From positions 1-64,000 of the IMG/VR virus record IMGVR_UViG_3300045988_133024: a DNA stretch of 64,000 nucleotides; one strand, written 5' to 3'. The position numbers were made by a program, and so were the translations under genes. This DNA comes from a virus. The notes under the pieces are model-generated. The model searched no databases and was not told where the DNA came from. It was given only the letters and a program-made list of their open reading frames with translations. Positions within the stretch are counted from its first letter, which is position 1, and each line of letters begins with the position of its first letter. Shown here in pieces: positions 11,380 to 57,089 of the stretch.

Positions 11380-12216
11380 ATGATTACTATTGGTGGAGTA
11401 CCAGTTGTTCCAGAATCTTTTCCAGATGGAACACAGAAAATTGGTTTGCCGTTAGGAGCAATGAGATCACGGATTGCAGTAAATAAATTTGTATCAATTG
11501 AATGGCTGTATGAATCAGATAAAGAATTATTTTCGCTATATTGTATTTCAAAAAGTATTCGAGAATATTTCCCACATTTATCACAGTGTTTAGTGATGCC
11601 GTATATTCCGAATGCAAGATTTGACAGGGTTAAAGATCATAACGAATGTTTTACATTAAAATATTTTGCAGAAATCATCAATGAATTAAATTTTAGAAAT
11701 GTCATCGTAACAGATCCTCACTCAGACGTTTCTAAAGCATTGATTGATCACCTACAATATATACCAATTAAACTATATATTTCTAAGGTTTGCAATAAAG
11801 TCCTTAAAGCAGAGCCATCAAGAAATCTCGTAATTTATTTTCCAGATAGCGGATCACTAAAAAGATATTCTGAATTTGTATCAGATGATTATCCGATTGT
11901 CTATGGAATTAAAAATCGGGATTGGAAGACAGGAGAAATTCTTGGTATTGAGATTCATGGAGATACAGATAAATTAGATGAGAATACAGCAATTCTAATG
12001 ATTGATGATATTTGTAGTAAGGGTGGCACATTTTATTATGGATCAAAAGAATTAAACAAATACGGTTGTAAAGATATGTATTTATATGTTACTCACTGTG
12101 AAAACACAATTCTTGATGGCGAATTATTAAAGGAAGATAGTTTGTTTAAAAAAGTGTATACGACACGTAGTATTTTTACAAAAGAACATGAGAAAGTTGA
12201 GGTGTTAGATTTATGA
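11380..12216 (+). CDS. ribose-phosphate pyrophosphokinase (Prs)-like protein; candidate ADPR-pyrophosphate synthetase of a NARP1-type NAD+ reconstitution pair
   Basis: PRPP/phosphoribosyltransferase-type loop 'AILMIDDICSKGGTF'. A Prs-like 'VIVTDPHS' motif. The stop overlaps the start of the downstream NAMPT-like gene. Confidence 0.55.
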   Translation: MITIGGVPVVPESFPDGTQKIGLPLGAMRSRIAVNKFVSIEWLYESDKELFSLYCISKSIREYFPHLSQCLVMPYIPNARFDRVKDHNECFTLKYFAEIINELNFRNVIVTDPHSDVSKALIDHLQYIPIKLYISKVCNKVLKAEPSRNLVIYFPDSGSLKRYSEFVSDDYPIVYGIKNRDWKTGEILGIEIHGDTDKLDENTAILMIDDICSKGGTFYYGSKELNKYGCKDMYLYVTHCENTILDGELLKEDSLFKKVYTTRSIFTKEHEKVEVLDL

Positions 12217-13679
12217 AACAGACAAATCCAATGTTATTAATTGATTTTTATAAAGCAGTTCATGCTGAAATGTTACCAAAAGGTATTACAAAATCTGTTT
12301 CTTATTTTACTCCACGTATGAGCAGGGTAAAACGATGGAACGAAGTCGTGATGTTTGGGTTACAGGGATTCATTAAAGAATATCTGATTGATTATTTTAA
12401 TAAGAATTTCTTTGATCTTAAAGGTGGAGCAGTTACTTCTTACAAGAGGATTATGGACGCAGCTCTTGGAGAAAATACTTATGGATTACAGAAAATCGCA
12501 GATCTTTATGAGCTTGGTTATCTTCCGATTGAGATTAAAGCACTTCCCGAAGGAACTTTAGCACCAATGCATGTGCCGATGTTTAGTATTGAGAATACTC
12601 ACAAAGATTTTGCATGGTTACCACAGGCATTAGAAAGTTTAATTTCCGCAGAAATGTGGCATCCGATGATTGCTGCGACTGTCGGGCATACATATAGACA
12701 GATTGTTAATAAGTTTTATGAAATGACTTGTGATGATGATATTGTAAAAGCTAAAGCATTAGGGGCTTTCGATTTTCGTGGCGAAGAATGTTTACAGTCT
12801 GCGGTTAAAGCAGGAGTAGGATGGTGTTTATCATTCTTAAATACAGCTACGGTTCCAACAATTCCATATTTAGAGAGAAATTATAACTGCGATTGTACGA
12901 AAGAACCAGTTGCTTTTGGTAGTCCGTCTACTGAGCATGCGGTCATGTGTAGTAATTATGCGATTGACGGAGATGAAGAGACTCTGATTAAAAGATTACT
13001 TACAGAGATTTATCCAAACACAAGCTTCTCAGCAGTATTGGATTCTTATGATTATTGGAATGTTGTAGAGAATATTCTTCCAAAACTCAAGAACGAGATT
13101 ATGAATCACAATGGATGTTTTCTTGTCAGAGGAGACTCAGGAGATTGTGTAGATGTAGTAACCAGAACAGTATTTAAGTTATGGGAAGAGTTTGGGGGAA
13201 CGACAAATACAAAAGGGTATAAAGTATTAGATCCTCATGTAAAAGCAATTTATGGAGATTCAATTACAATACAGAGGTGTGAGCAGATTTATGACATCTT
13301 AGAGAAAAATGGATTCGCAGCAAGTAATGTTGCACTTGGCGTAGGATCATTCTCATTCCAGTGTATCGAAGAAGATGGAGTTTTAAAACCATTTACAAGA
13401 GATACATTTAGCAGTTGTATTAAAGCAACGTATTGTGAGATTGATGGCAAACCATATCCAATTTTCAAGAATCCAAAAGATGGCGGATTTAAGAAATCTC
13501 AGAGAGGTTTATGTTATGTCTATAAAGGATCAGACGGTAAATTGACATTTAAAGATGGATATACTTCAGAAAATCTTCCAATGAACAACCTGCTTGAGAC
13601 AGTATTTAGAGATGGCAAGTTGGTAAAAGAGCAGTCATTACAGGAGATTAGAAGAGTGTTAAACGAAGGAGAATTTTAA
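12213..13679 (+). CDS. nicotinamide phosphoribosyltransferase (NAMPT/NadV)-family protein; candidate Namat of a NARP1-type pair
   Basis: N-terminal 'LLIDFYKAVH' matches the NAMPT 'D-x-YK-x-H' signature. The length (488 aa) fits the family. Start overlaps the upstream Prs-like gene. Confidence 0.6.
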   Translation: MKQTNPMLLIDFYKAVHAEMLPKGITKSVSYFTPRMSRVKRWNEVVMFGLQGFIKEYLIDYFNKNFFDLKGGAVTSYKRIMDAALGENTYGLQKIADLYELGYLPIEIKALPEGTLAPMHVPMFSIENTHKDFAWLPQALESLISAEMWHPMIAATVGHTYRQIVNKFYEMTCDDDIVKAKALGAFDFRGEECLQSAVKAGVGWCLSFLNTATVPTIPYLERNYNCDCTKEPVAFGSPSTEHAVMCSNYAIDGDEETLIKRLLTEIYPNTSFSAVLDSYDYWNVVENILPKLKNEIMNHNGCFLVRGDSGDCVDVVTRTVFKLWEEFGGTTNTKGYKVLDPHVKAIYGDSITIQRCEQIYDILEKNGFAASNVALGVGSFSFQCIEEDGVLKPFTRDTFSSCIKATYCEIDGKPYPIFKNPKDGGFKKSQRGLCYVYKGSDGKLTFKDGYTSENLPMNNLLETVFRDGKLVKEQSLQEIRRVLNEGEF

Positions 13680-14191
13680 TGATTAAAATTATTGAAGGCG
13701 ATTTGTTTGATACAAATGCGAAATTTATTTGTCATCAAGTAAATTGTGCAGGAAAAATGGGATCTGGGGTAGCGTTACAGGTACGACAAAAATATCCGCA
13801 TGTATATAAAGAATATGAAAAAGTTGCTTCGGAAGATATGTTAGGGGAAGTACAGATCATACCAGTGAATTCAAAATTTATTGGACATGAACCAGGAGAT
13901 ATTTGGTGTGGTATGAAAGTAAAAGGGTTCAGGGAAACACAATGGATTTGTAATTTATTTGCTCAAAAGAGTTATGGATATGACGGCAAGCAGTATACTT
14001 CAAATGAAGCTTTAAGACAGTGCTTTAAAAAACTTGCAGGAATGGTGCATGAGAAAAACAATAACTTTGGACAAACAATCGCTATGCCATATAAAATTGG
14101 ATGTTGTCGTGGAGGATCTGATTGGAGTGATGTTGCCAATATTATCGAAGAAGAATTTAAAGATTGTAATGTAGAATTATGGAGGTTATAG
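13679..14191 (+). CDS. macro domain protein (ADP-ribose binding/processing)
   Basis: 'IEGDLFDT...ICHQVNCAGKMGSGVALQV' is a macro-domain signature. Confidence 0.6.
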   Translation: MIKIIEGDLFDTNAKFICHQVNCAGKMGSGVALQVRQKYPHVYKEYEKVASEDMLGEVQIIPVNSKFIGHEPGDIWCGMKVKGFRETQWICNLFAQKSYGYDGKQYTSNEALRQCFKKLAGMVHEKNNNFGQTIAMPYKIGCCRGGSDWSDVANIIEEEFKDCNVELWRL

Positions 14192-14194
14192 AAC

Positions 14195-14965
14195 ATGAGT
14201 TTTAATGCAAAAGAAACCAAAGACAGATTAGTGCAGTGGATTAGAGATTGGTTTGAAATTAATGGTAAAGGATGCAATGCCATTGTAGGAATTTCAGGAG
14301 GCAAGGATTCATCAGTTGTCGCAGCCTTATGCGTAGAAGCACTTGGCAAGAATCGAGTAATCGGTGTCATGATGCCACAGGGCGTACAGTCAGATATTGA
14401 GTATTCTCAGATGTTATGTAATCACTTAGGTATTGAAAATTATACAGTTAATATCTACGAGCCATGTTTAAGTATCAAGCATGAAGTATCAAGCGTATTA
14501 AATGGTAAATGGAGTAAGCAGAGTGCAACAAACTTACCTGCTCGTATCCGTATGGCTACATTATATGCTTTCGCACAGAGTATGAATGGTAGAGTGGCAA
14601 ATACTTGTAACTTATCTGAAGACTGGGTTGGATATGCGACCAGATATGGAGATTCAGCTGGAGATTTTAGTCCATTAAGTGATCTGACTGTGACAGAAGT
14701 TAAAGCAATTGGTAAAGTTCTGGGACTTCCAACAGAGTTAATCGAAAAAACTCCTACTGATGGGTTATGTGGCAAGACAGATGAAGATAATCTTGGATTT
14801 ACATACGAAGTGTTGGATGAATATATCAGAACAGGTGAATGCAAGGATAAAGTAGTGAGACAGATCATTGATGAAATGCATGAGAAGAATGTATTTAAAC
14901 TTGCTCCAATGCCTAAATTTATATCTGGTATGTGGATCGAGGCAGGAATGGAGTTGGATGATTAA
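14195..14965 (+). CDS. nadE: NH3-dependent NAD+ synthetase (NadE)-like PP-loop ATPase
   Basis: PP-loop 'GISGGKDSSV'. Size and architecture fit NadE. Confidence 0.65.
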   Translation: MSFNAKETKDRLVQWIRDWFEINGKGCNAIVGISGGKDSSVVAALCVEALGKNRVIGVMMPQGVQSDIEYSQMLCNHLGIENYTVNIYEPCLSIKHEVSSVLNGKWSKQSATNLPARIRMATLYAFAQSMNGRVANTCNLSEDWVGYATRYGDSAGDFSPLSDLTVTEVKAIGKVLGLPTELIEKTPTDGLCGKTDEDNLGFTYEVLDEYIRTGECKDKVVRQIIDEMHEKNVFKLAPMPKFISGMWIEAGMELDD

Positions 14966-26801: not shown

Positions 26802-27605
26802 ATGTCAAGGAAAAATACAAGAGAATTTGAACTTGCTTTTAGTAAAAACAGAGATCCAGATTGGGAAGCAGATGTGGAAATTTATAGAAGAAGAAAGTTC
26901 GAAGTAGTGCGTGGTATTTGTCTTGGAGATGAGTTTGCTGAAATTGAGTCTTTAGAATACAAAAATTGTGACGAGTTAGATGAAATGTATTATCGTTTTG
27001 ATTATAATTTAAAAATGCTTATGAAGTCTTATTTGCATGAATATACAGATTATGTGCCAATCGAAACAATGCATATTACATCTCCTGCAATATTGTGTTG
27101 TGATGAAATTGTATTAAAAAACGGTGAGAAAATTTCTATTGATAACATATGTGGTGATAAATCAAATGGCAATGAAGTTTATAAATTATATTCTAATAGT
27201 ACATATACAGATGATGTATATTATGAATCTACTAAAGCATTAGTTTATGAATTGGCTAGTAAAGATGTTTGCAAGGCTATACATATAATGAAAGATATAA
27301 TGGACAAAGCGTATATAAAAGCAAGAAATGAACGAAGCATACATCCTTTTATTAGCCACTTGTTTAACGACCCTCCAATTCCATGTATTAAAAATAAATA
27401 TTCTATACATGATTTAGTAATGGGTACATTAAAATGCAGTGGTGATATTTATGAAGAAATAAACAAAGAAGTCCCAAATGCTATAGATATGATTGTGCCT
27501 CATCCTGGAAGACATGCAGAGTATTATTTTGGGTTAGATTATACAGATGAAGTAGAGCAATTCATTAAAGAACAGGAGGCAAAGAGATGTGAAGAAACTA
27601 AATGA
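26802..27605 (+). CDS. hypothetical protein
   Basis: 267-aa ORF. RBS 'aggggtg'. Confidence 0.5.
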   Translation: MSRKNTREFELAFSKNRDPDWEADVEIYRRRKFEVVRGICLGDEFAEIESLEYKNCDELDEMYYRFDYNLKMLMKSYLHEYTDYVPIETMHITSPAILCCDEIVLKNGEKISIDNICGDKSNGNEVYKLYSNSTYTDDVYYESTKALVYELASKDVCKAIHIMKDIMDKAYIKARNERSIHPFISHLFNDPPIPCIKNKYSIHDLVMGTLKCSGDIYEEINKEVPNAIDMIVPHPGRHAEYYFGLDYTDEVEQFIKEQEAKRCEETK

Positions 27606-28122
27606 TGAACAGCGAAGGCTGATTGAAGATAATTACTCTTTGATTTGGCATTTACATGAAAAATATTTTACAAAGTTTACAGATTTTGATACATATATGG
27701 ATCTTGGTCGTATGGCAATTTGTAAAGCAGCATTAAAATGGGATGAGTCAAAAGGAACTTTTGGTACTTTCTTTCGGTGGGTATTGCAAACAGAGGTAAA
27801 TCAATATTATGCAAAATGGCATAGACCAACAGAAAAAATGAATAGAAATGCAGAATCGTTAGATACGCCATTGGCAGGATACGAACCAGAAGATGATATT
27901 ACAATCGGAACAACACTGATGAGTAAAGATAATGTAGAGGATGAGGTGCTTACAAAGGTACATTTTCAAAATGAGTTTGATAAATTGGCACCGAGAAATA
28001 AAAAAATTATCACGTTAAAGCAGAAAGGTTTAACACAAAGACAAATTGCAAGTCAGCTTGGAATCACTCATCAGTGGGTTAGTCAAAATATTGTACAGTT
28101 TAAGAAAGCATTATGTGGATAA
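27589..28122 (+). CDS. sigma-70 family (ECF-like) sigma factor
   Basis: Region-2-like N-terminus 'LNDEQRRLIEDNYSLIWHLHEKYF'. Region-4 HTH 'LTQRQIASQLGITHQWVSQNIVQFKKAL'. A paralogue lies at 33349..33891. Confidence 0.55.
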   Translation: MKKLNDEQRRLIEDNYSLIWHLHEKYFTKFTDFDTYMDLGRMAICKAALKWDESKGTFGTFFRWVLQTEVNQYYAKWHRPTEKMNRNAESLDTPLAGYEPEDDITIGTTLMSKDNVEDEVLTKVHFQNEFDKLAPRNKKIITLKQKGLTQRQIASQLGITHQWVSQNIVQFKKALCG

Positions 28123-28135
28123 AAGAGGTGAGACC

Positions 28136-28957
28136 ATGACAATTGAAGAAGTAAAGGATTACATAAACTCGTCTACAGAGTATGACTTTTTGCGAGATTA
28201 TCCGCACAAAATCGCTTTTCTCACACTAGGTGGAAGTTATGCCTACGGAACAAATACAGAAGATTCTGATATTGATTTACGTGGTGTTTTCCTTAGTGAT
28301 AAAAGAGAGATTTTGTTGAATAATAATCAGAACAATCTTGAGAAGACCGATGACCATAAAGACATTGATACCGTGTTACATTCGCATATTAAGATGGTTA
28401 ATATGCTTGCTAAGGGCAATCCTACATTTTTAGAGTTGCTATACTTTGCACCAGACCGCTATCTGTATGTATCCGATATTGGTATGGAGTTGATCAAAAA
28501 TAGAGATATGTTCTTATCTAAGAGAGTTTGTCATGCATATAAAGGATATATTTGTGATTGCCTAGAACAAGCATACGTGAGATGTTCTAAATCAGACGAC
28601 ATTCAAAAGAAAACAAAATTTGCCAATAAATCAATGATACATGCTGTTCGTTTGTTGCTCCAAGTGATTCAATTACTACAATGTGGAACTATGTGTGGAA
28701 CAATTGAAGAAATAGGAAAAGACCTTATAGATATTAAGATGGGGTACAATACTTTGTGTGAAAAGAGACATCTTCCAGATGGCACTGAATGTACGGATTA
28801 TCGTCCAAACGAATCTTATAATGTGTTTACTAACAGACTATTGTCTGAATTTGAGTATGGGTACAAACATACAACCTTGCCAGACGAACCAGACTGGGAT
28901 CGTATCAATAACTTCTTGATGACAACAAATGAACGAATTGTGAGAGGAATGGTGTAA
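28136..28957 (+). CDS. Pol-beta-superfamily nucleotidyltransferase
   Basis: 'FLTLGGSYAYGTNTEDSDIDLRGVF' matches the NTase G[GS]x(9-13)DxD motif. Start trimmed to the ATG preceded by 'agaggtg'. Confidence 0.5.
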   Translation: MTIEEVKDYINSSTEYDFLRDYPHKIAFLTLGGSYAYGTNTEDSDIDLRGVFLSDKREILLNNNQNNLEKTDDHKDIDTVLHSHIKMVNMLAKGNPTFLELLYFAPDRYLYVSDIGMELIKNRDMFLSKRVCHAYKGYICDCLEQAYVRCSKSDDIQKKTKFANKSMIHAVRLLLQVIQLLQCGTMCGTIEEIGKDLIDIKMGYNTLCEKRHLPDGTECTDYRPNESYNVFTNRLLSEFEYGYKHTTLPDEPDWDRINNFLMTTNERIVRGMV

Positions 28958-33348: not shown

Positions 33349-33891
33349 ATGTCGTTGAAATTAAATGACGAACAGAGAAAATTAGTGGAACAAAATCATA
33401 ATTTGATTTACTCTGCTATGACAAAATGCGGTATCCGCAGACAAGATTTTGATGACTATTATGGATTCGCTGCTATTGGGTTGTGTAAGGCAGCAATTGA
33501 TTATGATGAAACACGATCTAAATCATTTTCGACATATGCGTATTTATGTATACAAAATGAAATAACGGTATATAACAAATACAGATTTCGGCAGAGAAGA
33601 AAGGGTGATATGAATACTATTTCATATAATCATATGTTAGATGATTGGGATGAAGACAAAAATGAAAATTCATTTCTTTTAAAGGATGAAGAAAATTTTG
33701 AAAAAAATATTATTTTCAAGTTGAATTTTCAAGATAAACGTTACACACTAAATAATAAGGACAGAATGATTGTTGATTTAAAATCAAAAGGTTATACATA
33801 TCAAGAAATCGCAAAAATGTTTGGTACATCATTTCAAGCGATACAACAAAAGATTAAAAGAATGCGATCAACAACATTTTCCAGATTATAA
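33349..33891 (+). CDS. sigma-70 family sigma factor (paralogue of 27589..28122)
   Basis: 'LNDEQRKLVEQNHNLIYSAM' matches 'LNDEQRRLIEDNYSLIWHLH'. C-terminal HTH 'YTYQEIAKMFGTSFQAIQQKIKRMR'. Confidence 0.55.
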   Translation: MSLKLNDEQRKLVEQNHNLIYSAMTKCGIRRQDFDDYYGFAAIGLCKAAIDYDETRSKSFSTYAYLCIQNEITVYNKYRFRQRRKGDMNTISYNHMLDDWDEDKNENSFLLKDEENFEKNIIFKLNFQDKRYTLNNKDRMIVDLKSKGYTYQEIAKMFGTSFQAIQQKIKRMRSTTFSRL

Positions 33892-47526: not shown

Positions 47527-48165
47527 ATGAGAAAAAGATTTTTAATGAAAGTTATTTCGTTTAGTTTTTTAGCAATGTGTTCGGGGTTTATGACTCACAC
47601 AGTAAAAGCAGAGAAGCGACCCTCTATAGAGGCTTCAACACTATCAACAGAGACAACTGCTGGAGAAAATAAGCAAGACAATGTGATTTCAAATAATCCA
47701 ATCAGTCAAAGCGTTGAATTAAAAGACGTTCATGAGCATTATCAGAAATGTAAGAAAGCTGATGAAGAGAAAGCAAGACAGATTCGATTAGAAAAACTTC
47801 GAAAGAAACGATTGCGAATTAAACGACAACGGCTGAAGCGAAAGCAAGAACTAGAAAAGAGTTCGCTTGGAACATTTTTGATCACGGCATATTGTCCATG
47901 TTATGAGTGTTCAGAAGGATATGGATCTAAGATTGCTTGGAATCACGCAGGGCATAAATTTGCTCGACCATATCATACGATTGCGGTTGATAAAAACATT
48001 ATCCCTTATGGAACAAGAGTTAAGATTGAGGGATACGGTGATACAATCTTTGTGGCAGAAGATTGTGGAGGCAAAGTAGAAGGAATGCATGTAGACGTGT
48101 TTAAATCAACACATTCCGAAACAGTAAATGTGCAACAGCACAGAAAAGTATATGTAGTGAAGTAA
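47527..48165 (+). CDS. secreted 3D-domain protein (MltA-like / cell-wall-active)
   Basis: Start trimmed to the second ATG (RBS 'aaaggag'), giving the signal peptide MRKRFLMKVISFSFLAMCSG. 3D-domain core 'ITAYCPCYECSEGYGSKIAWNHAG...VAEDCGGKVEGMHVDVF'. Confidence 0.55.
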   Translation: MRKRFLMKVISFSFLAMCSGFMTHTVKAEKRPSIEASTLSTETTAGENKQDNVISNNPISQSVELKDVHEHYQKCKKADEEKARQIRLEKLRKKRLRIKRQRLKRKQELEKSSLGTFLITAYCPCYECSEGYGSKIAWNHAGHKFARPYHTIAVDKNIIPYGTRVKIEGYGDTIFVAEDCGGKVEGMHVDVFKSTHSETVNVQQHRKVYVVK

Positions 48166-48249
48166 TTGGCAGTTACTGAAAGACATAGAAACACAAATTA
48201 AAATAATCAACTAAACAATATAAACAAGAAAAGGAAAATCCAAAAAAAT

Positions 48250-50241
48250 ATGAAAACTGAATATGTGAAAGAAATGAATGTCTTGATCGACAGAATCAAT
48301 GATGCTTCATATGCGTACTACGCAGAGGATAATCCAATCATTTCAGATAAAGAATTTGACGATTTATGCGCTGCTTTAGAACGACTTGAGAGAGATTCTG
48401 GCGTTGTTTTGAATAATTCGCCCATCCACCACGTTCAAGGATTTGTAATTGATTCTCTGGCTAAAGTAAAGCATACACGCCCAATGTTATCGGCTCAGAA
48501 GACAAAGGATGTCAATGAGGTCAAAAAATTTCTTGCGGATAAAATTGGTGTTTTATCGTGGAAACTTGACGGATTGACGGTGGTACTAAGGTACGAAAAA
48601 GGACGCTTAAAACAAGCAATTACAAGGGGAAATGGAGAAATTGGAGAAGATGTGACTCATACAGCACGTATGATTTTCAATTTACCTCTTGAGATTCCTG
48701 ACAAGCGTAGTATTGAGGTACGTGGCGAATCAGTTATCAGTTATGAAAACTTCCAGAAAATCAATGAAGCATTGCATGGTAAATACAAGAACGCAAGAAA
48801 TCTGGCAGCAGGCACAATTAGACAGTTAGATGCGAATGTAGCAAAGGAAAGAAAGCTTGCCTATAAAGCATTTGAACTTGTTAAGATTGATGGTGTATCT
48901 GATAAAGAAATGCCAAGTATTGCAGATAGTTTTAAATATCTTGCAGAGCAGGGATTTGACGTTGTAGAACATCAGATTGTTAATCGAGATAATGTCGAAG
49001 AATATATTGAGAAATTTGATCCAGAGACATATGAATATCCTGTTGATGGTCTGATTTTTACTTATAACGATTATCAGTATGGTAAATCTCTTGGAACAAC
49101 GGGACATCATCCATTAAATATGATGGCATTAAAGTGGATCGATGATCTCTACGAAACAACAATCAGAGATATTGAATGGAATACATCTCGCACAGGATTA
49201 ATTAATCCAGTTGCAGTGTTTGATCCAGTTGATCTTGATGGTGCAGAAACTACAAGAGCTACATTACATAACGTAAGTTACATTGAGGGACTAGAACTTG
49301 GTGTAGGTGATACGATTCAAGTTTATCGTAGCAATATGGTAATTCCAAAAGTACACGATAATCTGACAAGAAGCAATACATTCAAGATTCCAGATACTTG
49401 TCCAACCTGCGGTGGCGCAGCAAAAATCATCAACGAAAATGGTAGTAAAGTCTTAAAATGCATGAATCCTGACTGCAAGGCAAAGCTATTAAGCAAGTTT
49501 GTGAACTTTGTTTCTAGAGATGCAATGAATATTCAAGGTTTATCTGAAGCAACACTGAAAAGATTTATTGATCTTGGATGGCTGAAAGATTATACAGATA
49601 TTTATAATTTAGCAGAGCATCAATCTGAGATGAAGAACCTTGATGGGTTTGGTGCAAAAAGTGTTTCTTCCTTATTAAATAGTATCGAGGAAAGTCGTAG
49701 ATGTAAACTGGTTAATTTCGTAACAGCACTTGGCATTGAACTTGTCGGGAAGTCAACAGCAAAGGATATTTGCAAACTTATTGATAAGATTTCCCTATCA
49801 AATAATGAAAATCCATACAATGTGTTTATCGAAAGAATCAAACAGAGGAAATATTTTGGTCATATTGATGGCATCGGTATTACAACTTCATTATCAATGG
49901 ATGCTTATTTCAAAGACAATCTTGAAATGGTTGAGAAATTAGCAGAAGAACTTGAATTTGAAATACCAGAAAGTAAGAAAGAATCTGCTGTTGATCTTAC
50001 AGGAATGACTTTTGTTGTAACTGGTAAGGTAAATAAGTTTGCCAATCGTAATGCGATCAAAGATGAAATTGAGTCCAGAGGTGGTAAGGTTGCAGGATCT
50101 GTATCAAAGAATACGAATTATCTTGTGAACAATGATGTGAATTCTACAAGCAGTAAGAATAAAAAGGCACAGCAGTTAGGCATTCCGATCATTGATGAAG
50201 ATGGGCTGATCAAGATTCTAAAAGGTGATATGAATGAATAA
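48250..50241 (+). CDS. ligA: NAD+-dependent DNA ligase
   Basis: Adenylation motif 'WKLDGLTV' (KxDG). Zinc-finger Cys cluster. C-terminal BRCT-like 'TFVVTGKVNKFANRNAIKDEIESRGGKV'. Confidence 0.8.
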   Translation: MKTEYVKEMNVLIDRINDASYAYYAEDNPIISDKEFDDLCAALERLERDSGVVLNNSPIHHVQGFVIDSLAKVKHTRPMLSAQKTKDVNEVKKFLADKIGVLSWKLDGLTVVLRYEKGRLKQAITRGNGEIGEDVTHTARMIFNLPLEIPDKRSIEVRGESVISYENFQKINEALHGKYKNARNLAAGTIRQLDANVAKERKLAYKAFELVKIDGVSDKEMPSIADSFKYLAEQGFDVVEHQIVNRDNVEEYIEKFDPETYEYPVDGLIFTYNDYQYGKSLGTTGHHPLNMMALKWIDDLYETTIRDIEWNTSRTGLINPVAVFDPVDLDGAETTRATLHNVSYIEGLELGVGDTIQVYRSNMVIPKVHDNLTRSNTFKIPDTCPTCGGAAKIINENGSKVLKCMNPDCKAKLLSKFVNFVSRDAMNIQGLSEATLKRFIDLGWLKDYTDIYNLAEHQSEMKNLDGFGAKSVSSLLNSIEESRRCKLVNFVTALGIELVGKSTAKDICKLIDKISLSNNENPYNVFIERIKQRKYFGHIDGIGITTSLSMDAYFKDNLEMVEKLAEELEFEIPESKKESAVDLTGMTFVVTGKVNKFANRNAIKDEIESRGGKVAGSVSKNTNYLVNNDVNSTSSKNKKAQQLGIPIIDEDGLIKILKGDMNE

Positions 50242-50575
50242 ATTAACTATTTACGAATGTTTTGTTAGACTGGGAATCCCAGAAAGCAAAATCGAAAGGT
50301 TTGTTGTAAAAGACAATTATGTAGAATATCGCATCTGGGAACCGTGTTCAATCAGCTATAACGGAGAAACATACAAATACGGTAGACGTTGTAAAGTAAA
50401 ATATCTCACTACACCAGATGAGTTAGATTTAGTTTTTGACGAAAGATACTTCATTAAAGATCAAGATGCAGAGTTTTGGACAGAAGATTATGAATTTTAC
50501 AAACAACAGACAGGTGTAGAACCTTCAGAAATTGATTGGTCAAAGCAGAAAGAGATTAAACACCCTAAGATTTAA
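50234..50575 (+). CDS. hypothetical protein
   Basis: 113-aa ORF with overlapping start. Confidence 0.5.
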   Translation: MNKLTIYECFVRLGIPESKIERFVVKDNYVEYRIWEPCSISYNGETYKYGRRCKVKYLTTPDELDLVFDERYFIKDQDAEFWTEDYEFYKQQTGVEPSEIDWSKQKEIKHPKI

Positions 50576-50593
50576 AAGGAGAGAATTGAATAT

Positions 50594-51001
50594 ATGAAAT
50601 TAAACATTAAAAAACGAATGGCAATTATTGCTGCAATTGGATGTCTTAGTATTGGTGGTATTGTGACAGGATGCACTGAAGCCGATAAGGTATCAACTAA
50701 TGTATCCAAAGAAGCAGACAATTTTAATGTCTTAAGACGATTTGCTGTAATTAATACACGAACAGATAAAGTTGAGTTTGAAATTGTCGGGGCATTTTCT
50801 TTAGAAGATGAAGGCAGTAAGAAAGTAAAACTTATTGTCGAAACAGCAGATGGCTCATATAAGAAACATATTGTCCACATGAACCGAGATAGCATGTATG
50901 TAATCGAAGATTTAGGTGGGGCTAAAGTTAACAAATATAAATATGAAGTTAACTATATTCCAGAATCAATTGTTCCATTTAAAGTTACAGAGAGTAAATA
51001 A
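50594..51001 (+). CDS. putative lipoprotein
   Basis: Signal peptide with lipobox 'IVTGC'. Confidence 0.5.
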   Translation: MKLNIKKRMAIIAAIGCLSIGGIVTGCTEADKVSTNVSKEADNFNVLRRFAVINTRTDKVEFEIVGAFSLEDEGSKKVKLIVETADGSYKKHIVHMNRDSMYVIEDLGGAKVNKYKYEVNYIPESIVPFKVTESK

Positions 51002-51012
51002 GGTGCCGTGGC

Positions 51013-51258
51013 ATGATAGGTAAACTTATTGACGTTACAAATTTCAATCGGCAGCAGGCAATTAAGTTTATGGCAATAAAATGCACAGAATGTGATATTT
51101 ACGGTAAGTGTACTAGAGAAGATAAGAAAATATGTAGTAATAAAACAAATTATCTTTTAGAAAAAATTAGAAGAGAAGAAGAACAGAGGAAGTCAAAAGA
51201 TATTGCGACTGTAAACCACAAAGGAACTTATGTAAAATACACATACCAAAAAGAGTAA
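51013..51258 (+). CDS. hypothetical protein
   Basis: 81-aa ORF. Confidence 0.45.
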   Translation: MIGKLIDVTNFNRQQAIKFMAIKCTECDIYGKCTREDKKICSNKTNYLLEKIRREEEQRKSKDIATVNHKGTYVKYTYQKE

Positions 51259-51267
51259 AGGAGAAAA

Positions 51268-51555
51268 TTGAATATGATTATTACAGGAATGGATCACTTT
51301 CAGAGTGTATGTAAAAGAAAATTAGTAGATTGGTATAACAAACATTGTGAAGAAAATCATTTGGCAATGAAAATTGATCTCAGTAACGTGTTTGTCGTTT
51401 GGAGCTGTAAGACTTTGCAGAACTATAAATGCTTGGCATCTACGACAGTAAGCGGTGATGGTATCTATGCAGAGTATACATACAACGGAGACAAACAGGA
51501 ATTATATGAAGATGTGTATAAGAAACTGACAAATACATGTCATACGGAAGAGTAA
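51268..51555 (+). CDS. hypothetical protein
   Basis: 95-aa ORF. RBS 'aaaggagaa'. Confidence 0.5.
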   Translation: MNMIITGMDHFQSVCKRKLVDWYNKHCEENHLAMKIDLSNVFVVWSCKTLQNYKCLASTTVSGDGIYAEYTYNGDKQELYEDVYKKLTNTCHTEE

Positions 51556-51568
51556 AGGAGAATTTATT

Positions 51569-51832
51569 ATGGATTTTGGAACAGCAATTGATGCAATGAA
51601 AGATAACAGAAAAGTAGCAAGAAAAGGTTGGAATGGGAAAGGTATGTTTTTATATTATGTTCCAGCAGGAGCTTATGCGCCATGCACAGATATTGCTAAA
51701 AGCATTGTAAACAAAGACGGATTAGTCGAATATGGTGCTTATATTGCAATGAAAACAGCACAGGGGAACGTAGTTCCTTGGCTCGCAAGTCAGACAGATA
51801 TGTTGGCTGAAGACTGGATGATCGTTGAATAG
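51569..51832 (+). CDS. DUF2829-like protein; candidate Thoeris anti-defense Tad2-type nucleotide sponge
   Basis: N-terminal 'FGTAIDAMKDNRKVARKGWNGKGMFLYYV' matches the DUF2829 hallmark (A-L/M-K-x-G-K-x-V-x-R-x-G-W-N-G-K). The 87-aa size fits Tad2. Confidence 0.5.
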   Translation: MDFGTAIDAMKDNRKVARKGWNGKGMFLYYVPAGAYAPCTDIAKSIVNKDGLVEYGAYIAMKTAQGNVVPWLASQTDMLAEDWMIVE

Positions 51833-51869
51833 ATAAAATTAATCTTTGATGAAATACGTTAGGTGAATT

Positions 51870-52232
51870 ATGAAACATGAAGTAAATATGCAGGCATGGC
51901 AATTTTATTCTAATCGTCAAGAAGAGATTATTCCATGCGAATATAATCCGACAATAGTGGAATTACATGTGATGATCGAGGTCAGAGGGCAAATGCCAGA
52001 CTGGTTGTCTGAAGAGTCTCCTTACTTTTATTATAAAGCGAAACAGAAGACATATTATTCTTCTCATAAAGACCAGAATTTAAGTGAATTTTATAATGTT
52101 TTCGTAAGTATTGGACAACAGTTTCACATGTTATTAGAAGAAGGTGATTATATTATTCGTTGTAAAAATGGAAGATTTATGACAATGAAAAAAGATGATT
52201 TTGAGTCATTATTCGATACAGAAGGTAGGTGA
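51870..52232 (+). CDS. hypothetical protein
   Basis: 120-aa ORF. Confidence 0.5.
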   Translation: MKHEVNMQAWQFYSNRQEEIIPCEYNPTIVELHVMIEVRGQMPDWLSEESPYFYYKAKQKTYYSSHKDQNLSEFYNVFVSIGQQFHMLLEEGDYIIRCKNGRFMTMKKDDFESLFDTEGR

Positions 52233-52236
52233 TTAA

Positions 52237-53061
52237 ATGGCTTTAATTGGAGCGATTCTAGGAGATATTTGCGGTTCTCAATATGAGTTCCGCAGACCTC
52301 ATAATTTAGATTGGAAGAACTGTGAATTGTTTACAGATAAATGTAAATACACAGATGATACAGTTCTTAGTATTGCAACAGGTATGTGGTTGTTAGATGA
52401 AACCAATAAAGAACCTTGGGAGTTCTACTTAGAATATGGCAAGAAATATCCTGGTATGGGATATGGTGAAATGTTTGAAGACTGGTTGTACGATGATGGA
52501 AATCGTGTTAATGAAAGCTTTGGCAATGGATGTGCCATGAGGATTTCACCTATTACAATGTATTTTAATGGATTTGTTGATCGTCCAGACGTATCGAATT
52601 ATTACATAGATTTAGCACAATGGACATGTGAGAAAACTCATCGTCATGTGGAATCTTACAAAGGTGCATCGATTGTAACAGGCTGTTCTTTGATGGCGCT
52701 ATGGGGTAAATCAAAAGAAGAAATTTATCAATATGCATTAAAAAGTTATCCATCTCACCAGTATACATATGGCATTGATCGACCACTCGATGATTATAGA
52801 AAGAATTATGTTTGGTCAGCAACAGTTCAAGATAGTGTACCTGTGGCAATCAGATGCTTTTTAGAGAGTGAAGATTATGAATCGTTTTTAAGAAACGTAT
52901 TGTCTTTGCCATGTGATACAGACACAATTGCTGCTATTGGCGGTGGCATTGCAGAGGATTTCTATAGAAAAACACTTGATAATTCAAATGATCTTTTAGA
53001 AAGATATCTTCCGAAAGAATTATTAGATGATGTGAGTAAAATCTACAATGAAATGCCATAA
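52237..53061 (+). CDS. ADP-ribosylglycohydrolase (ARH/DraG family)
   Basis: N-terminal 'MALIGAILGDICGSQYEF' matches the ARH signature. 274 aa. Confidence 0.6.
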   Translation: MALIGAILGDICGSQYEFRRPHNLDWKNCELFTDKCKYTDDTVLSIATGMWLLDETNKEPWEFYLEYGKKYPGMGYGEMFEDWLYDDGNRVNESFGNGCAMRISPITMYFNGFVDRPDVSNYYIDLAQWTCEKTHRHVESYKGASIVTGCSLMALWGKSKEEIYQYALKSYPSHQYTYGIDRPLDDYRKNYVWSATVQDSVPVAIRCFLESEDYESFLRNVLSLPCDTDTIAAIGGGIAEDFYRKTLDNSNDLLERYLPKELLDDVSKIYNEMP

Positions 53062-53080
53062 GGTAGGTGATTAAATATCA

Positions 53081-53122
53081 TAAAGAAAATCTTAAAATTT
53101 TTAAAGAAAATCTTAAAATTTT
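53081..53122. repeat. perfect 21-bp tandem duplication (taaagaaaatcttaaaatttt x2)
   Basis: Read directly. Confidence 0.6.
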
Positions 53123-53130
53123 TCTTGTCG

Positions 53131-53301
53131 ATGATCGTACTGACCATCGTCTGGTTTCTTGCAACATTCATATCTGTTGGTGTATTTGCATTTGCGTTTT
53201 GGATGATAACAAATATTGTAATACCAATTGGATTAGTAGTAATTGTAACAATTGTATTAATGGCGATCACCTTCTATGTGGTGACATCGTTCATGGATTG
53301 A
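53131..53301 (+). CDS. possible small two-TM hydrophobic peptide (56 aa); competes with the overlapping track ORF 53067..53309
   Basis: Frame-1 translation is MIVLTIVWFLATFISVGVFAFAFWMITNIVIPIGLVVIVTIVLMAITFYVVTSFMD. No good RBS. The AT-rich template makes such frames easy to produce by chance. Confidence 0.25.
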   Translation: MIVLTIVWFLATFISVGVFAFAFWMITNIVIPIGLVVIVTIVLMAITFYVVTSFMD

Positions 53302-53323
53302 TAGATTAAAAGGAGAATATGTT

Positions 53324-53884
53324 ATGAGAATTAAAAAATTATTAATCGCTGGAGCATTAATGTTAACAGCAGTAGGATGCGTTTCAGCATATACTATTTA
53401 TGCAGATACACTAAATGATAACACTGATAAACAGGTTTCTGCAACAACAGAAGGTAAGTCAACTACAGAAACTACAAAGAACACAACAGAACAGAAAAAT
53501 AATAAGAAAAATGCCGTCAAAGAAGATTCTAAAGATACAACAAATGATGTATCGGCAACAACAGAAGAAGAAAAAAATACTGAAAATTCTACCGCAGACG
53601 ATACAGACGATGCAGATTATACAGAACCAGAATACCCTGATGACGCAGATGAAACTTGTGACCATGTGTGGGCAGAAAAAACAATTGCATATGATGAAGA
53701 AAATGGATATCATTGGACAACTTATTGCGAAAAATGTGGAACTGTTAAAACAGAGCCAGCCACAGAAGAAGAATACGAAGAACTTGATCCTGCAACAAAA
53801 GTAAAAGAAGAAGATATTGAATATGTAGATGATGATTCTGCCGAGGTTGTAGAGAAATCGACAGAAGCAGCAGCTGAAAACTAA
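53324..53884 (+). CDS. secreted/lipoprotein with Thr/Glu-rich low-complexity region and C-terminal Cys cluster
   Basis: Signal peptide 'MRIKKLLIAGALMLTAVGC'. RBS 'aaaggagaa'. Confidence 0.5.
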   Translation: MRIKKLLIAGALMLTAVGCVSAYTIYADTLNDNTDKQVSATTEGKSTTETTKNTTEQKNNKKNAVKEDSKDTTNDVSATTEEEKNTENSTADDTDDADYTEPEYPDDADETCDHVWAEKTIAYDEENGYHWTTYCEKCGTVKTEPATEEEYEELDPATKVKEEDIEYVDDDSAEVVEKSTEAAAEN

Positions 53885-53911
53885 AATATAGCATAAGGAG
53901 AAAATGAGTAT

Positions 53912-54040
53912 ATGACAAAATTAGAGCAGTTAAATTTATTAAAGGATAGAAAAGCCGTTTTAATCGCTAGAGGGAAAGATAATGGCAAAATCGTAACAAA
54001 AATCAATAGAAGAATCAAAAAATTAGAAAAGGACTTATAG
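53912..54040 (+). CDS. small basic protein (42 aa, not in the supplied track)
   Basis: Strong RBS 'aaggagaaaa' 7 nt upstream. Fills the gap between two genes. Confidence 0.35.
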   Translation: MTKLEQLNLLKDRKAVLIARGKDNGKIVTKINRRIKKLEKDL

Positions 54041-54042
54041 AG

Positions 54043-54633
54043 ATGGTAGGAGATAAAAGTAATGTTTTAATCGCTCTGGTTGGGCGATCTGGAGCAGGCA
54101 AAAGTGTCTCAGCAAAGTATCTGGAAGACATTTACGGTCTGAAATATCTACGATCATATACCACCAGAGAGAAGAGAGCAGACAAACTTGATGATCATAC
54201 ATATGTAAATCTAGCCCAGTATTCCAGAATTACAGGCAAGGTTGCAGAGAATCATTACACAGGCAATTGGTATTGTGCTACAGAAAGTCAGTGCGATGAT
54301 GCAGACGTATATGTAGTTGATGTTCCAGGATTAAAACAGTTAAAAGAAAATTATCATAAGAAACATATCTTGGCATTATGTATTGATACACCAAGTTCTA
54401 CACGTATTCAGAGAATGAAAGATCGTGGAGATACAAGTGATGCAATTGATGAAAGAATGAAAAAAGACGAATCTGCTTTTGAAGAAGCTTATGATTTATG
54501 CGATGCAGTTATTAATAATGAAGGAAGTTTGTCTATGACTTGTCTGAATATTATGGCTGAGCTAGAGAGATTCAAAAGACAGATTAGAGACACGGAAGGA
54601 GCGACAACAAAGGAAGTTGATCAGAACAATTAA
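54043..54633 (+). CDS. guanylate-kinase-like nucleoside monophosphate kinase
   Basis: P-loop 'VGRSGAGKSV'. 'SYTTREKRADKLDDHTYV' resembles the GMP-kinase 'STTR..R..E.DG.DY.FV' block. Confidence 0.5.
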   Translation: MVGDKSNVLIALVGRSGAGKSVSAKYLEDIYGLKYLRSYTTREKRADKLDDHTYVNLAQYSRITGKVAENHYTGNWYCATESQCDDADVYVVDVPGLKQLKENYHKKHILALCIDTPSSTRIQRMKDRGDTSDAIDERMKKDESAFEEAYDLCDAVINNEGSLSMTCLNIMAELERFKRQIRDTEGATTKEVDQNN

Positions 54634-54817
54634 TCAGCTTAGGAATTTAGTTTCTAAACTACACATAGAAAAAGAGGTACTTGTTAAGGATGTAGAAACA
54701 GGTAAGACAATGATGATTGAGAGCGTATCAACCGAAAAGATTGATGGTGATGGTAACGATGCACGATATACGTTGAACTGCAAGAAAGCAGGAGACGGGT
54801 GCGTTACATATAGATGA
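54617..54817 (+). CDS. small hypothetical protein
   Basis: 66-aa ORF with overlapping start. Confidence 0.4.
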   Translation: MIRTINQLRNLVSKLHIEKEVLVKDVETGKTMMIESVSTEKIDGDGNDARYTLNCKKAGDGCVTYR

Positions 54818-54851
54818 TGATATTATTACATAATTTATTGGAGGTCTTTTA

Positions 54852-57089
54852 TTGAAAGTAATTAAAAGAGATTGTACTGTTGTAGATTTCGACAAGACCA
54901 AAATTTACACAGCGATTATGAAAGCAATGAAAAATGGATCTGGGTTAATTAAGGAAGATGTTGCAAAACAGATTGCAAGAGAAATCGAAAATGATTGCAG
55001 TAAATTATCAGAAGAAATTGACATTTCTACAATTGAAGCAATGGTATTCAAAAAACTTGTTGAGAAAGGACAGGAACTAACTGCAAAAGCATACGAAGGT
55101 TATCGCAGTGTTCGAGAGTTCCAGAGAGAGAATTATGACTCTATTGATAGCGAAGTTCTTGGACTTATCGAGGATTCCAATGAAGAAATTAAAGATGAAA
55201 ATGCAAATAAAAATTCTGTACTAAATCCAACAAAAAGAGATTATATTGCTGGTATTGTTAGTGAGGATGCGACAGAACGCTATTTACTTCCACCAGAAAT
55301 TGTGCAAGCGCATAAGGAAGGTATTATTCATTTCCATGACAGAGATTATTTTTTACAGAAAATGCATAATTGTGGGTTATTAAATATTGAAGATATGCTT
55401 CAGAATGGAACTGTAATTAGCGAAGTTTTAATCGAAAAACCGCATTCATTTTCAACTGCTTGCAATATTACGACTCAAGGTATTGCACAAGTAGCTAGTT
55501 CTCAGTATGGCGGACAGAGTATTTCTTTGGCACATTTAGCACCGTTCGTAGATGTGAGTAGAAAGAAAATTAGATCTGAAGTTGAATTGGAATGGGCACA
55601 TGTTGATATTCCATACAAAGAGCAGCATATTGAAAAAATTGTAGCGAATAGATTATATGCAGAAGTTAAAAAAGGCATACAAATTATACAGTATCAGCTG
55701 ATCACGCTTATGACAACTAATGGACAATCACCATTTATTTCCATTTTTATGTATCTGAATGAAGCCAAAACACCACAGGAGAAAAAAGATTTGGCTTTAT
55801 TGATTGAAGAGATGATTAGACAAAGAGATGAAGGAGTTAAAAATGAAGATGGTGTATTTGTTGCACCAGCATTTCCAAAATTAATTTATGTTTTAGAAGA
55901 TGATAATTGTAATGAGTCTACAGAATATTGGTATCTGACAAAATTAGCGGCCAAATGTTCTGCAAAAAGATTGGTTCCAGATTACATCTCTGAAAAGGTT
56001 ATGAAAGAGTTAAAAGGTGATGTTTATACTTGCATGGGGTGTAGGTCGTTCTTAACACCCGATCGTTTCACAGACAAAGGGATTGGCAATATTGCACACG
56101 CAAAAAATTATGATCCAAAGCAGCATAAATATTATGGTAGATTTAACCAAGGAGTCGTTACATTATCTCTTCCAGATATCGCATTGTCTTCTAAAAAGAA
56201 TATGAATGAATTTTGGGCATTGTTTGATGAACGAACAGAATTATGTCATAAAGCACTTAAAGAAAGACATAAACGTCTCCTTGGAACAAAGTCAGATGTA
56301 GCACCTGTTCTTTGGCAGTATGGGGCATATAGCAGGCTGAAAAAGCATGAGGTAATTGATCCGTTATTATTTGATGGATACTCAACTATTTCATTAGGCT
56401 ATGCAGGGTTATATGAATGTGTCAAATATATGACTGGGCATTCTCATTCAGATGGTGGAGTTGGTGAAAAATTTGGATTAGAAATCATGAAACGAATGAA
56501 TGACAAATGTGAGCAGTGGAAGAGTGAAGAAAATATTGATTACAGTATTTACGGTACGCCTTTAGAGTCTACAACGTATAAATTTGCCAAGTGTTTAAAG
56601 AAACGATTTGGCAATGATGTGTTTGAAAAAATTGATGGCAAAGATAGAAATTACATTACAAACAGCTACCATATTCCTGTGTTTGAAGAAATTGATGCCT
56701 TTGACAAGCTTCGTATTGAAGCAAAATTCCAGAAACTTAGTCCAGGAGGGGCAATAAGTTATATTGAAACTCCTAATATGGAACATAATGTAAGTGCTTT
56801 ATTGGAAGTAATTAAATATATGTACGATCATATTATGTATGCAGAAATTAATACAAAGAGTTGTTATTGTGAAAAATGTGGATACTCTGGAGATATTCCA
56901 TTAGTTGACGAAGATGGTATTTTGAAATGGAGATGTCCTCAGTGCGGAAATGAAGATGGTTCTACTATGGATATTGCATTCAGATGCTGTGGTTACATTG
57001 GGACTTCTAAGAATGGAGGCAATCAGGGAAGATATGGGGATATCCATGATCGAGTTTACCACTTAGATGATAAGGAGTTAGATGAATGA
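54852..57089 (+). CDS. nrdD: anaerobic ribonucleoside-triphosphate reductase (class III RNR)
   Basis: N-terminal ATP-cone 'VIKRDCTVVDFDKTKIYTAI'. Zinc ribbon 'CEKCGYSGD...CPQCGNED'. Glycyl-radical motif 'RCCGYIG'. TTG start with RBS 'ggagg'. Confidence 0.85.
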   Translation: MKVIKRDCTVVDFDKTKIYTAIMKAMKNGSGLIKEDVAKQIAREIENDCSKLSEEIDISTIEAMVFKKLVEKGQELTAKAYEGYRSVREFQRENYDSIDSEVLGLIEDSNEEIKDENANKNSVLNPTKRDYIAGIVSEDATERYLLPPEIVQAHKEGIIHFHDRDYFLQKMHNCGLLNIEDMLQNGTVISEVLIEKPHSFSTACNITTQGIAQVASSQYGGQSISLAHLAPFVDVSRKKIRSEVELEWAHVDIPYKEQHIEKIVANRLYAEVKKGIQIIQYQLITLMTTNGQSPFISIFMYLNEAKTPQEKKDLALLIEEMIRQRDEGVKNEDGVFVAPAFPKLIYVLEDDNCNESTEYWYLTKLAAKCSAKRLVPDYISEKVMKELKGDVYTCMGCRSFLTPDRFTDKGIGNIAHAKNYDPKQHKYYGRFNQGVVTLSLPDIALSSKKNMNEFWALFDERTELCHKALKERHKRLLGTKSDVAPVLWQYGAYSRLKKHEVIDPLLFDGYSTISLGYAGLYECVKYMTGHSHSDGGVGEKFGLEIMKRMNDKCEQWKSEENIDYSIYGTPLESTTYKFAKCLKKRFGNDVFEKIDGKDRNYITNSYHIPVFEEIDAFDKLRIEAKFQKLSPGGAISYIETPNMEHNVSALLEVIKYMYDHIMYAEINTKSCYCEKCGYSGDIPLVDEDGILKWRCPQCGNEDGSTMDIAFRCCGYIGTSKNGGNQGRYGDIHDRVYHLDDKELDE

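Follow-up and report, generated by a model that had tools for sequence, protein, structure and literature searches.

A Tad2-family protein, predicted to sequester Thoeris signals, in a cassette-swapping region of an uncultured gut phage

The tad2-like gene and its neighbourhood

The window (the whole stretch of viral DNA analysed here, 64,000 nucleotides) encodes an integrase, DnaB, Pol III alpha, RecD2, an NAD-dependent ligase, NrdD/NrdG and a C5 methylase, and comes from a phage of an anaerobic host; every listed minus-strand ORF of 110 aa or more is nested in, or overlaps, a longer plus-strand ORF. The gene of interest (Table 1) encodes a small, standalone, phage-borne protein of the kind expected for Tad2, and its translation opens with MDFGTAIDAMKDNRKVARKGWNGKGMFLYYV; the original prediction had the reading frame and its N-terminus right. 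Its ribosome-binding site directly follows the TAA (51553–51555) of the upstream DUF6275 gene, and the only ORFs overlapping it are short ones on the opposite strand (38 and 74 aa). The gene is under strong purifying selection, with dN/dS of 0.05–0.19 against relatives at 67–97% amino-acid identity. A promoter scan of 48000–55000 returned 22 promoter-like sites against 31 expected from shuffled sequence and is, as a result, uninformative about when the gene is expressed.

Table 1. Positions of the tad2-like gene, its pocket codons and other genes of the window
Feature	Position	Strand	Evidence and remarks
tad2-like gene, single-domain Tad2/DUF2829, 87 aa	51569..51832	+	ORF list; ATG start, TAG included
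Ribosome-binding site AGGAG	51556..51560	+	Read from sequence; 8 nt 5′ of the tad2-like ATG
W21-N22 codons, β1–β2 loop	51629..51634	+	Equivalent to SPO1 W25/N26 and HgmTad2 W21/N22 (gcADPR contacts)
W71-L-A-S74-Q-T76-D77 codons, pocket segment	51779..51799	+	Equivalent to SPO1 W73/S76/T78/D79 and HgmTad2 W87/S90/T92/D93
DUF6275 gene	51268–51555		PF19791, 1.9e-29; immediately upstream of the tad2-like gene
120-aa ORF	51870–52232		Between the tad2-like gene and the ADP-ribosylglycohydrolase gene
ADP-ribosylglycohydrolase	52237–53061		PF03747, 1.3e-26; phrog_6572; two genes downstream of the tad2-like gene
Prs-like ribose-phosphate pyrophosphokinase	11380–12216		phrog_619; below NCBIfam Prs cutoffs
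NAMPT-like	12213–13679		phrog_448; PF04095/PF18127
DarG-like macrodomain, 170 aa	13679–14191		
NadE	14195–14965		PF02540, 1.3e-55
SPFH/flotillin-like protein, 486 aa	15366–16826		PF01145, PF15975; just downstream of the NAD+ block
TnpB/Cas12f-like ORF, 542 aa	23077–24705		PF07282 (TNB) and PF01385 (OrfB_IS605)
Sigma-factor-like protein	27589–28122		
RlaP-family nucleotidyltransferase	28046–28957		PF10127
Sigma-factor-like protein	33349–33891		

Sister contigs of about 64–70 kb are syntenic with the window and share a backbone that reads LigA – 113 aa – [VG64 or LemA + 250 aa] – DUF6275 – Tad2 – [75 aa or N6-MTase + SNF2] – (ADP-ribosylglycohydrolase) – 42 aa – kinase – NrdD. Throughout these sister phages Tad2 sits between swapped cassettes in the accessory region that runs from LigA to NrdD; it is thus a stable element of a region that exchanges its cassettes, a setting typical of counter-defence genes. 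The 120-aa ORF that follows it in the window matched nothing in Pfam, PHROG or NCBIfam, nor by tblastn in 87 related loci, and at its position the sister phages have either an ORF of 68–77 aa or the N6-MTase + SNF2 cassette. The ADP-ribosylglycohydrolase, which could reverse ADP-ribosylation or degrade ADPR-based signals, lies near Tad2 in five of seven loci of the same lineage but was absent from the vicinity of Tad2 in all 80 other genomic loci, and we rejected it as a general partner of Tad2. DUF6275 recurs in two more distant loci, both from Clostridia (L004 and L006), where it lies no more than 6 kb from a Tad2 homolog, hinting at a loose linkage between the two genes.

The phage is uncultured, and megablast of 48000–56000 against 50,697 phage records found no match. 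Homologs of the protein are abundant, a catalogue of 2,783 non-redundant phage Tad2 homologs having been compiled previously (PMC12393519). Scoring of 8,000 candidates yielded at least 7,951 protein clusters that reach E ≤ 1e-5, an identical copy is recorded in 58 blocks of the metagenome collection, and 379 cultured-phage records encode a homolog, every one at less than 60% identity. Its closest genomic homologs are found in gut Bacillota, an example being that of Eubacterium sp. AM49-13BH at 80% identity. Two sets of longer relatives also came to light. In two proteins of 148 aa (P0002 and P0006), a homolog of the window ORF at 51013–51258 continues in frame into Tad2; we rejected these as true domain fusions, as they are probably gene calls that read through a translated ribosome-binding site (‘KGEFI’). 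Two others of 151–152 aa (P0017 and P0024) have at the N-terminus a distinct domain of some 64 aa (…YNxYRGW…GYxSW…), which the Tad2 homologs of E. coli UM149 and Bacteroides share.

Family membership and fold

The original prediction had assigned the protein to DUF2829 and Tad2 on a sequence motif, A-[LM]-K-x-G-K-x-V-x-R-x-G-W-N-G-K, and the assignment is borne out by profile, sequence and fold; the motif itself is matched at ten of its 12 fixed positions, with N13 in place of G and R14 in place of K. The Pfam profile PF11195 (‘Tad2-like’; curated gathering cutoff, 25 bits) aligns with the protein along its entire length (positions 1–73 of 73) at E = 5.5e-28 and 97.8 bits, which puts the likeness far above chance. 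A phmmer search of all PDB chains returned Tad2-family proteins only, with E values running from 2.5e-25 for ModTad2 (8V3E, 9EIB) through 4.6e-19 for SptTad2 (8WJD), 1.4e-18 for HgmTad2/AcrIIA7 (8KBI), 9.5e-17 for AcrIIA7 (9KZR) and 2.7e-14 for SPO1 Tad2 in 8SME to 3.4e-14 for the same protein in 8WJE. NCBIfam holds no model that matches the protein, and the PHROG families that do, phrog_1048 and phrog_872, are both annotated ‘unknown function’.

An AlphaFold2 monomer model built from an input of 46 homologs has a mean pLDDT of 94.1, with helices at residues 3–11, 41–44 and 75–79 and five to six strands. Compared with the PDB by Foldseek, the model matches Tad2 structures and nothing else at significant levels: all 24 matches with E < 1e-3 are Tad2 structures (TM 0.65–0.80), and the next entry in the list stands at E = 0.57. 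Taken together, the Pfam, phmmer and Foldseek results make membership of the Tad2 family secure, and we regard it as virtually certain.

Pocket residues and predicted ligand

A 2025 screen found that, between them, Tad2 homologs can block CBASS, Pycsar and Thoeris of types I, II and IV (PMC12393519), and the ligands known across the family include His-ADPR, N7-cADPR, 2′cADPR, cGG/cGAMP and cUMP (PMC12393519; 10.64898/2025.12.03.692087). ModTad2, in particular, binds His-ADPR, 2′cADPR and cUMP/cCMP but not 3′cADPR, and leaves type I Thoeris uninhibited (10.1101/2024.01.03.573942; 10.64898/2025.12.03.692087). Because of this diversity membership alone does not fix the ligand, and our prediction of its identity is drawn from a comparison of pockets rather than from the family name. 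We aligned the window protein by MAFFT with experimentally characterized Tad2 sequences and compared 13 pocket positions, taking SPO1 gp34.65 from the phage genome, HgmTad2 and SptTad2 from PDB alignments, ModTad2, TmoTad2 and CcaTad2 from 10.1101/2024.01.03.573942 (Suppl. Table S3), and four proteins verified to inhibit type I Thoeris (M. bastinii, R. callidus, Nitrosospira Nsp1 and E. coli UM149) from Suppl. Table 12 of 10.1101/2023.05.01.538930. In that Table S3 the entry named TmoTad2 (Tatumella) is AT-rich and has a Firmicute-like leader, that named CcaTad2 (Clostridium cadaveris) GC-rich, so that on codon composition the two labels may have been swapped; as both proteins are type II inhibitors, a swap would leave our conclusion unaffected.

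SPO1 Tad2 contacts 1′′-3′ gcADPR directly through W25, N26, W73, T78 and D79, with S76 coordinating water (10.1101/2023.05.01.538930), and mutation of W21/N22 and S90/T92/D93 in HgmTad2 abolishes gcADPR binding (PMC10680739). All of these contact residues are retained in the window protein, as W21, N22, W71, S74, T76 and D77. Across the 13 pocket positions it shares 12 with the Nitrosospira Nsp1 protein and six with ModTad2, and identity over the C-terminal pocket segment (residues 57–83) falls from 78% with Nitrosospira and 70% with HgmTad2 to 44% with ModTad2. Every one of the six tested Tad2 proteins that carry S-Q-T-D (SPO1, Hgm, Spt, M. bastinii, R. callidus and Nitrosospira) binds gcADPR or inhibits type I Thoeris, whereas SVSD, SQAD and SQGD stand at this site in the three type II inhibitors. 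Judged by motif, an indirect comparison, the SQTD of the window protein sets it apart from the pocket composition of the ModTad2-type clade. The motif is present in 108 of the 120 closest homologs, and Thr occupies the T76 position in 50 of 80 genomic homologs, variation that fits a role for this residue in the tuning of specificity. As an absolute discriminator between type I and type II, however, Thr76 (SPO1 T78) had to be dropped: the Tad2 of E. coli UM149 reads SIGD and is yet a verified type I inhibitor, which makes Thr76 supportive rather than diagnostic. On these residues the canonical pocket is of the 3′cADPR type, like that of verified 3′cADPR binders and type I inhibitors and unlike that of ModTad2.

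Of the homologs tested by experiment, the nearest in a BLASTP comparison is the Tad2 of a Nitrosospira sp. Nsp1 prophage (IMG 2671453364; 53% identity, 96.7 bits), a verified inhibitor of type I Thoeris (Yirmiya et al., 10.1101/2023.05.01.538930, Suppl. Table 12). Both proteins are short and single-domain, and their C-terminal MKTAQG(N/D)VVPWL(A/C)SQTDMLAEDW is nearly identical; they differ in the sequence of the β2–β5 insertion and in their source, a betaproteobacterial prophage there and a gut Bacillota phage here. Among solved structures the best match by sequence is ModTad2 (also MoTad2) from a Myroides odoratus prophage (8V3E, apo; 9EIB, with His-ADPR), which in its 9EIB form is also the top Foldseek match by E value (TM 0.79) and is of almost the same length (88 versus 87 aa), but whose pocket reads W-T-P-S-V-S-D where the window protein has W-L-A-S-Q-T-D. 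SPO1 Tad2 (gp34.65; 8SME, 8SMF, 8SMG), the founding member, shares the fold (TM 0.65–0.78) at about 40% identity; its water-coordinating D67 and H71 are replaced by Q65 and V69, and its insertion differs from that of the window protein, with F44 stacking to occlude the second pocket. HgmTad2 (AcrIIA7; 8KBI–8KBM) and SptTad2 (8WJD) are 44–48% identical to the window protein and have the same gcADPR-site motifs, GWNGKGMF and WLASQTDM, but carry the long cGG/3′3′-cGAMP insertion.

In HgmTad2 the pocket for cGG and 3′3′-cGAMP is formed by this long insertion (residues 32–72) together with R31, S47, F70 and N85 (PMC10680739). The corresponding insertion of the window protein has 21 aa rather than 36, with V31 in place of R31, Y55 in place of F70 and a gap at N85, so that the combination characteristic of this dual sponge, an insertion of about 40 aa plus R31, S47, F70 and N85, is missing. 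Given the short insertion, V31 and the absence of N85, binding of cyclic dinucleotides in the manner of HgmTad2 appears unlikely. In length and partly in sequence (YYVPxGxY...TD) the insertion instead resembles that of ModTad2, where this architecture forms an intradimer pocket shown to hold cUMP (PMC12393519); a second pocket with another ligand is accordingly possible on sequence grounds in the window protein.

A predicted sponge and the NAD+ block

Extrapolating from solved homologs for its assembly, the binding and identity of its ligand and its inhibition of Thoeris in vivo alike, we propose that the 87-aa protein would form a homotetramer of two V-shaped dimers, in which two pockets at non-dimeric protomer interfaces would enclose an ADP-ribose-derived signal made by TIR proteins. 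With that signal sequestered, the Thoeris effector ThsA, an NADase, would stay off and the phage would escape abortive infection. By analogy with the family, the protein very likely serves to soak up an ADPR-derived signal of TIR origin; the canonical pocket would most plausibly take up 3′cADPR (1′′-3′ gcADPR, the signal of type I Thoeris) and probably its 2′ isomer too, and we favour 3′cADPR as the main ligand with rather less assurance. For the combined statement, that this is a Tad2-family anti-Thoeris sponge whose most likely ligand is 3′cADPR, we estimate a probability of roughly 0.7.

The protein might instead be a Tad2 sponge for some signal other than 3′cADPR: His-ADPR (type II), 2′cADPR (type VI), N7-cADPR (type IV), or a cyclic mono- or dinucleotide held in the intradimer pocket. 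The breadth of systems inhibited across the family, CBASS and Pycsar beside three types of Thoeris, would allow for this, as would the ModTad2-like insertion and the fact that the leading match in both phmmer and Foldseek, ModTad2, is a protein that does not bind 3′cADPR. Yet it is in the canonical pocket that the two part company, at seven of the 13 positions, the same positions that agree almost throughout with Nitrosospira; all three known type II inhibitors have S, A or G where the window protein has T76, and the cyclic-dinucleotide route is weakened by the loss of R31 and N85 and by the shortened insertion. We consider such a ligand unlikely.

Two further readings would take the protein out of Thoeris altogether. 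Inhibition of type II-A Cas9 was the activity first reported for a DUF2829 protein, AcrIIA7, to whose chains (as HgmTad2) the window protein is plainly homologous, and one cultured-phage homolog (H18) is annotated ‘anti-CRISPR protein’; but AcrIIA7 later proved to be a sponge for gcADPR and cyclic dinucleotides (PMC10680739), Yirmiya et al. point out that no binding to Cas9 was ever demonstrated and make the case for an anti-Thoeris rather than an anti-CRISPR role of DUF2829 proteins, and a fully conserved nucleotide pocket points to ligand sequestration, which together make an anti-CRISPR function the least probable of the readings weighed here. Scarcely more credible is a non-defence role for the fold, or a decayed and inactive copy: the uninformative PHROG annotations, the want of an NCBIfam model and the existence of relatives in which the domain is fused to other N-terminal domains (P0017, P0024) would be in keeping with it, whereas the strength of purifying selection, the retention of every ligand-contact residue, the recurrence of the identical protein in many independent metagenome contigs, and the activity as sponges of nearly all tested family members speak against it.

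The sponge for a TIR-derived signal that we prefer may not act alone. The original prediction had set beside it an NAD+ reconstitution block, and four adjacent genes at 11380–14965 do make up such a block (Table 1). By gene content its Prs-like and NAMPT-like pair resembles NARP1, which consists of Adps and Namat (10.1101/2024.02.11.579819); the macrodomain and NadE beside the pair are less usual additions. With the block in place, the idea that Tad2 and NAD+ restoration could form two layers against TIR/NADase immunity is a reasonable one, and the NARP1-like pair, macrodomain, NadE and ADP-ribosylglycohydrolase fit a phage under immune pressure based on NAD+ or ADPR. Together with Tad2 they would constitute a layered toolkit against such immunity, suggesting that the hosts of this phage depend heavily on TIR or NADase defences.

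A more elaborate scheme, which we regard as improbable, would make the protein a multi-signal sponge with two pockets, the canonical one of the 3′cADPR type and a ModTad2-like intradimer one for a second signal such as a Pycsar cyclic mononucleotide; it may, in that scheme, cooperate with the ADP-ribosylglycohydrolase and the NARP1-like block, and if so TIR signals and ADPR would be neutralized first and then recycled into NAD+. Such a specificity for two pockets, or joint action with the NAD+ block and the ADP-ribosylglycohydrolase peculiar to this lineage, is the only mildly novel possibility that the locus raises. The Tad2 family already counts its members in thousands, is known from several crystal structures and works by a defined mechanism, and a gut Bacillota phage lineage that carries a Thoeris-signal sponge, predicted by homology, adds no new biology to it; the practical value lies in the annotation and in a comparison of pocket residues that predicts ligand class within a ligand-diverse family.

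Other genes of the window observed in passing include an SPFH/flotillin-like protein next to the NAD+ block, a TnpB/Cas12f-like ORF, two sigma-factor-like proteins and an RlaP-family nucleotidyltransferase (Table 1).
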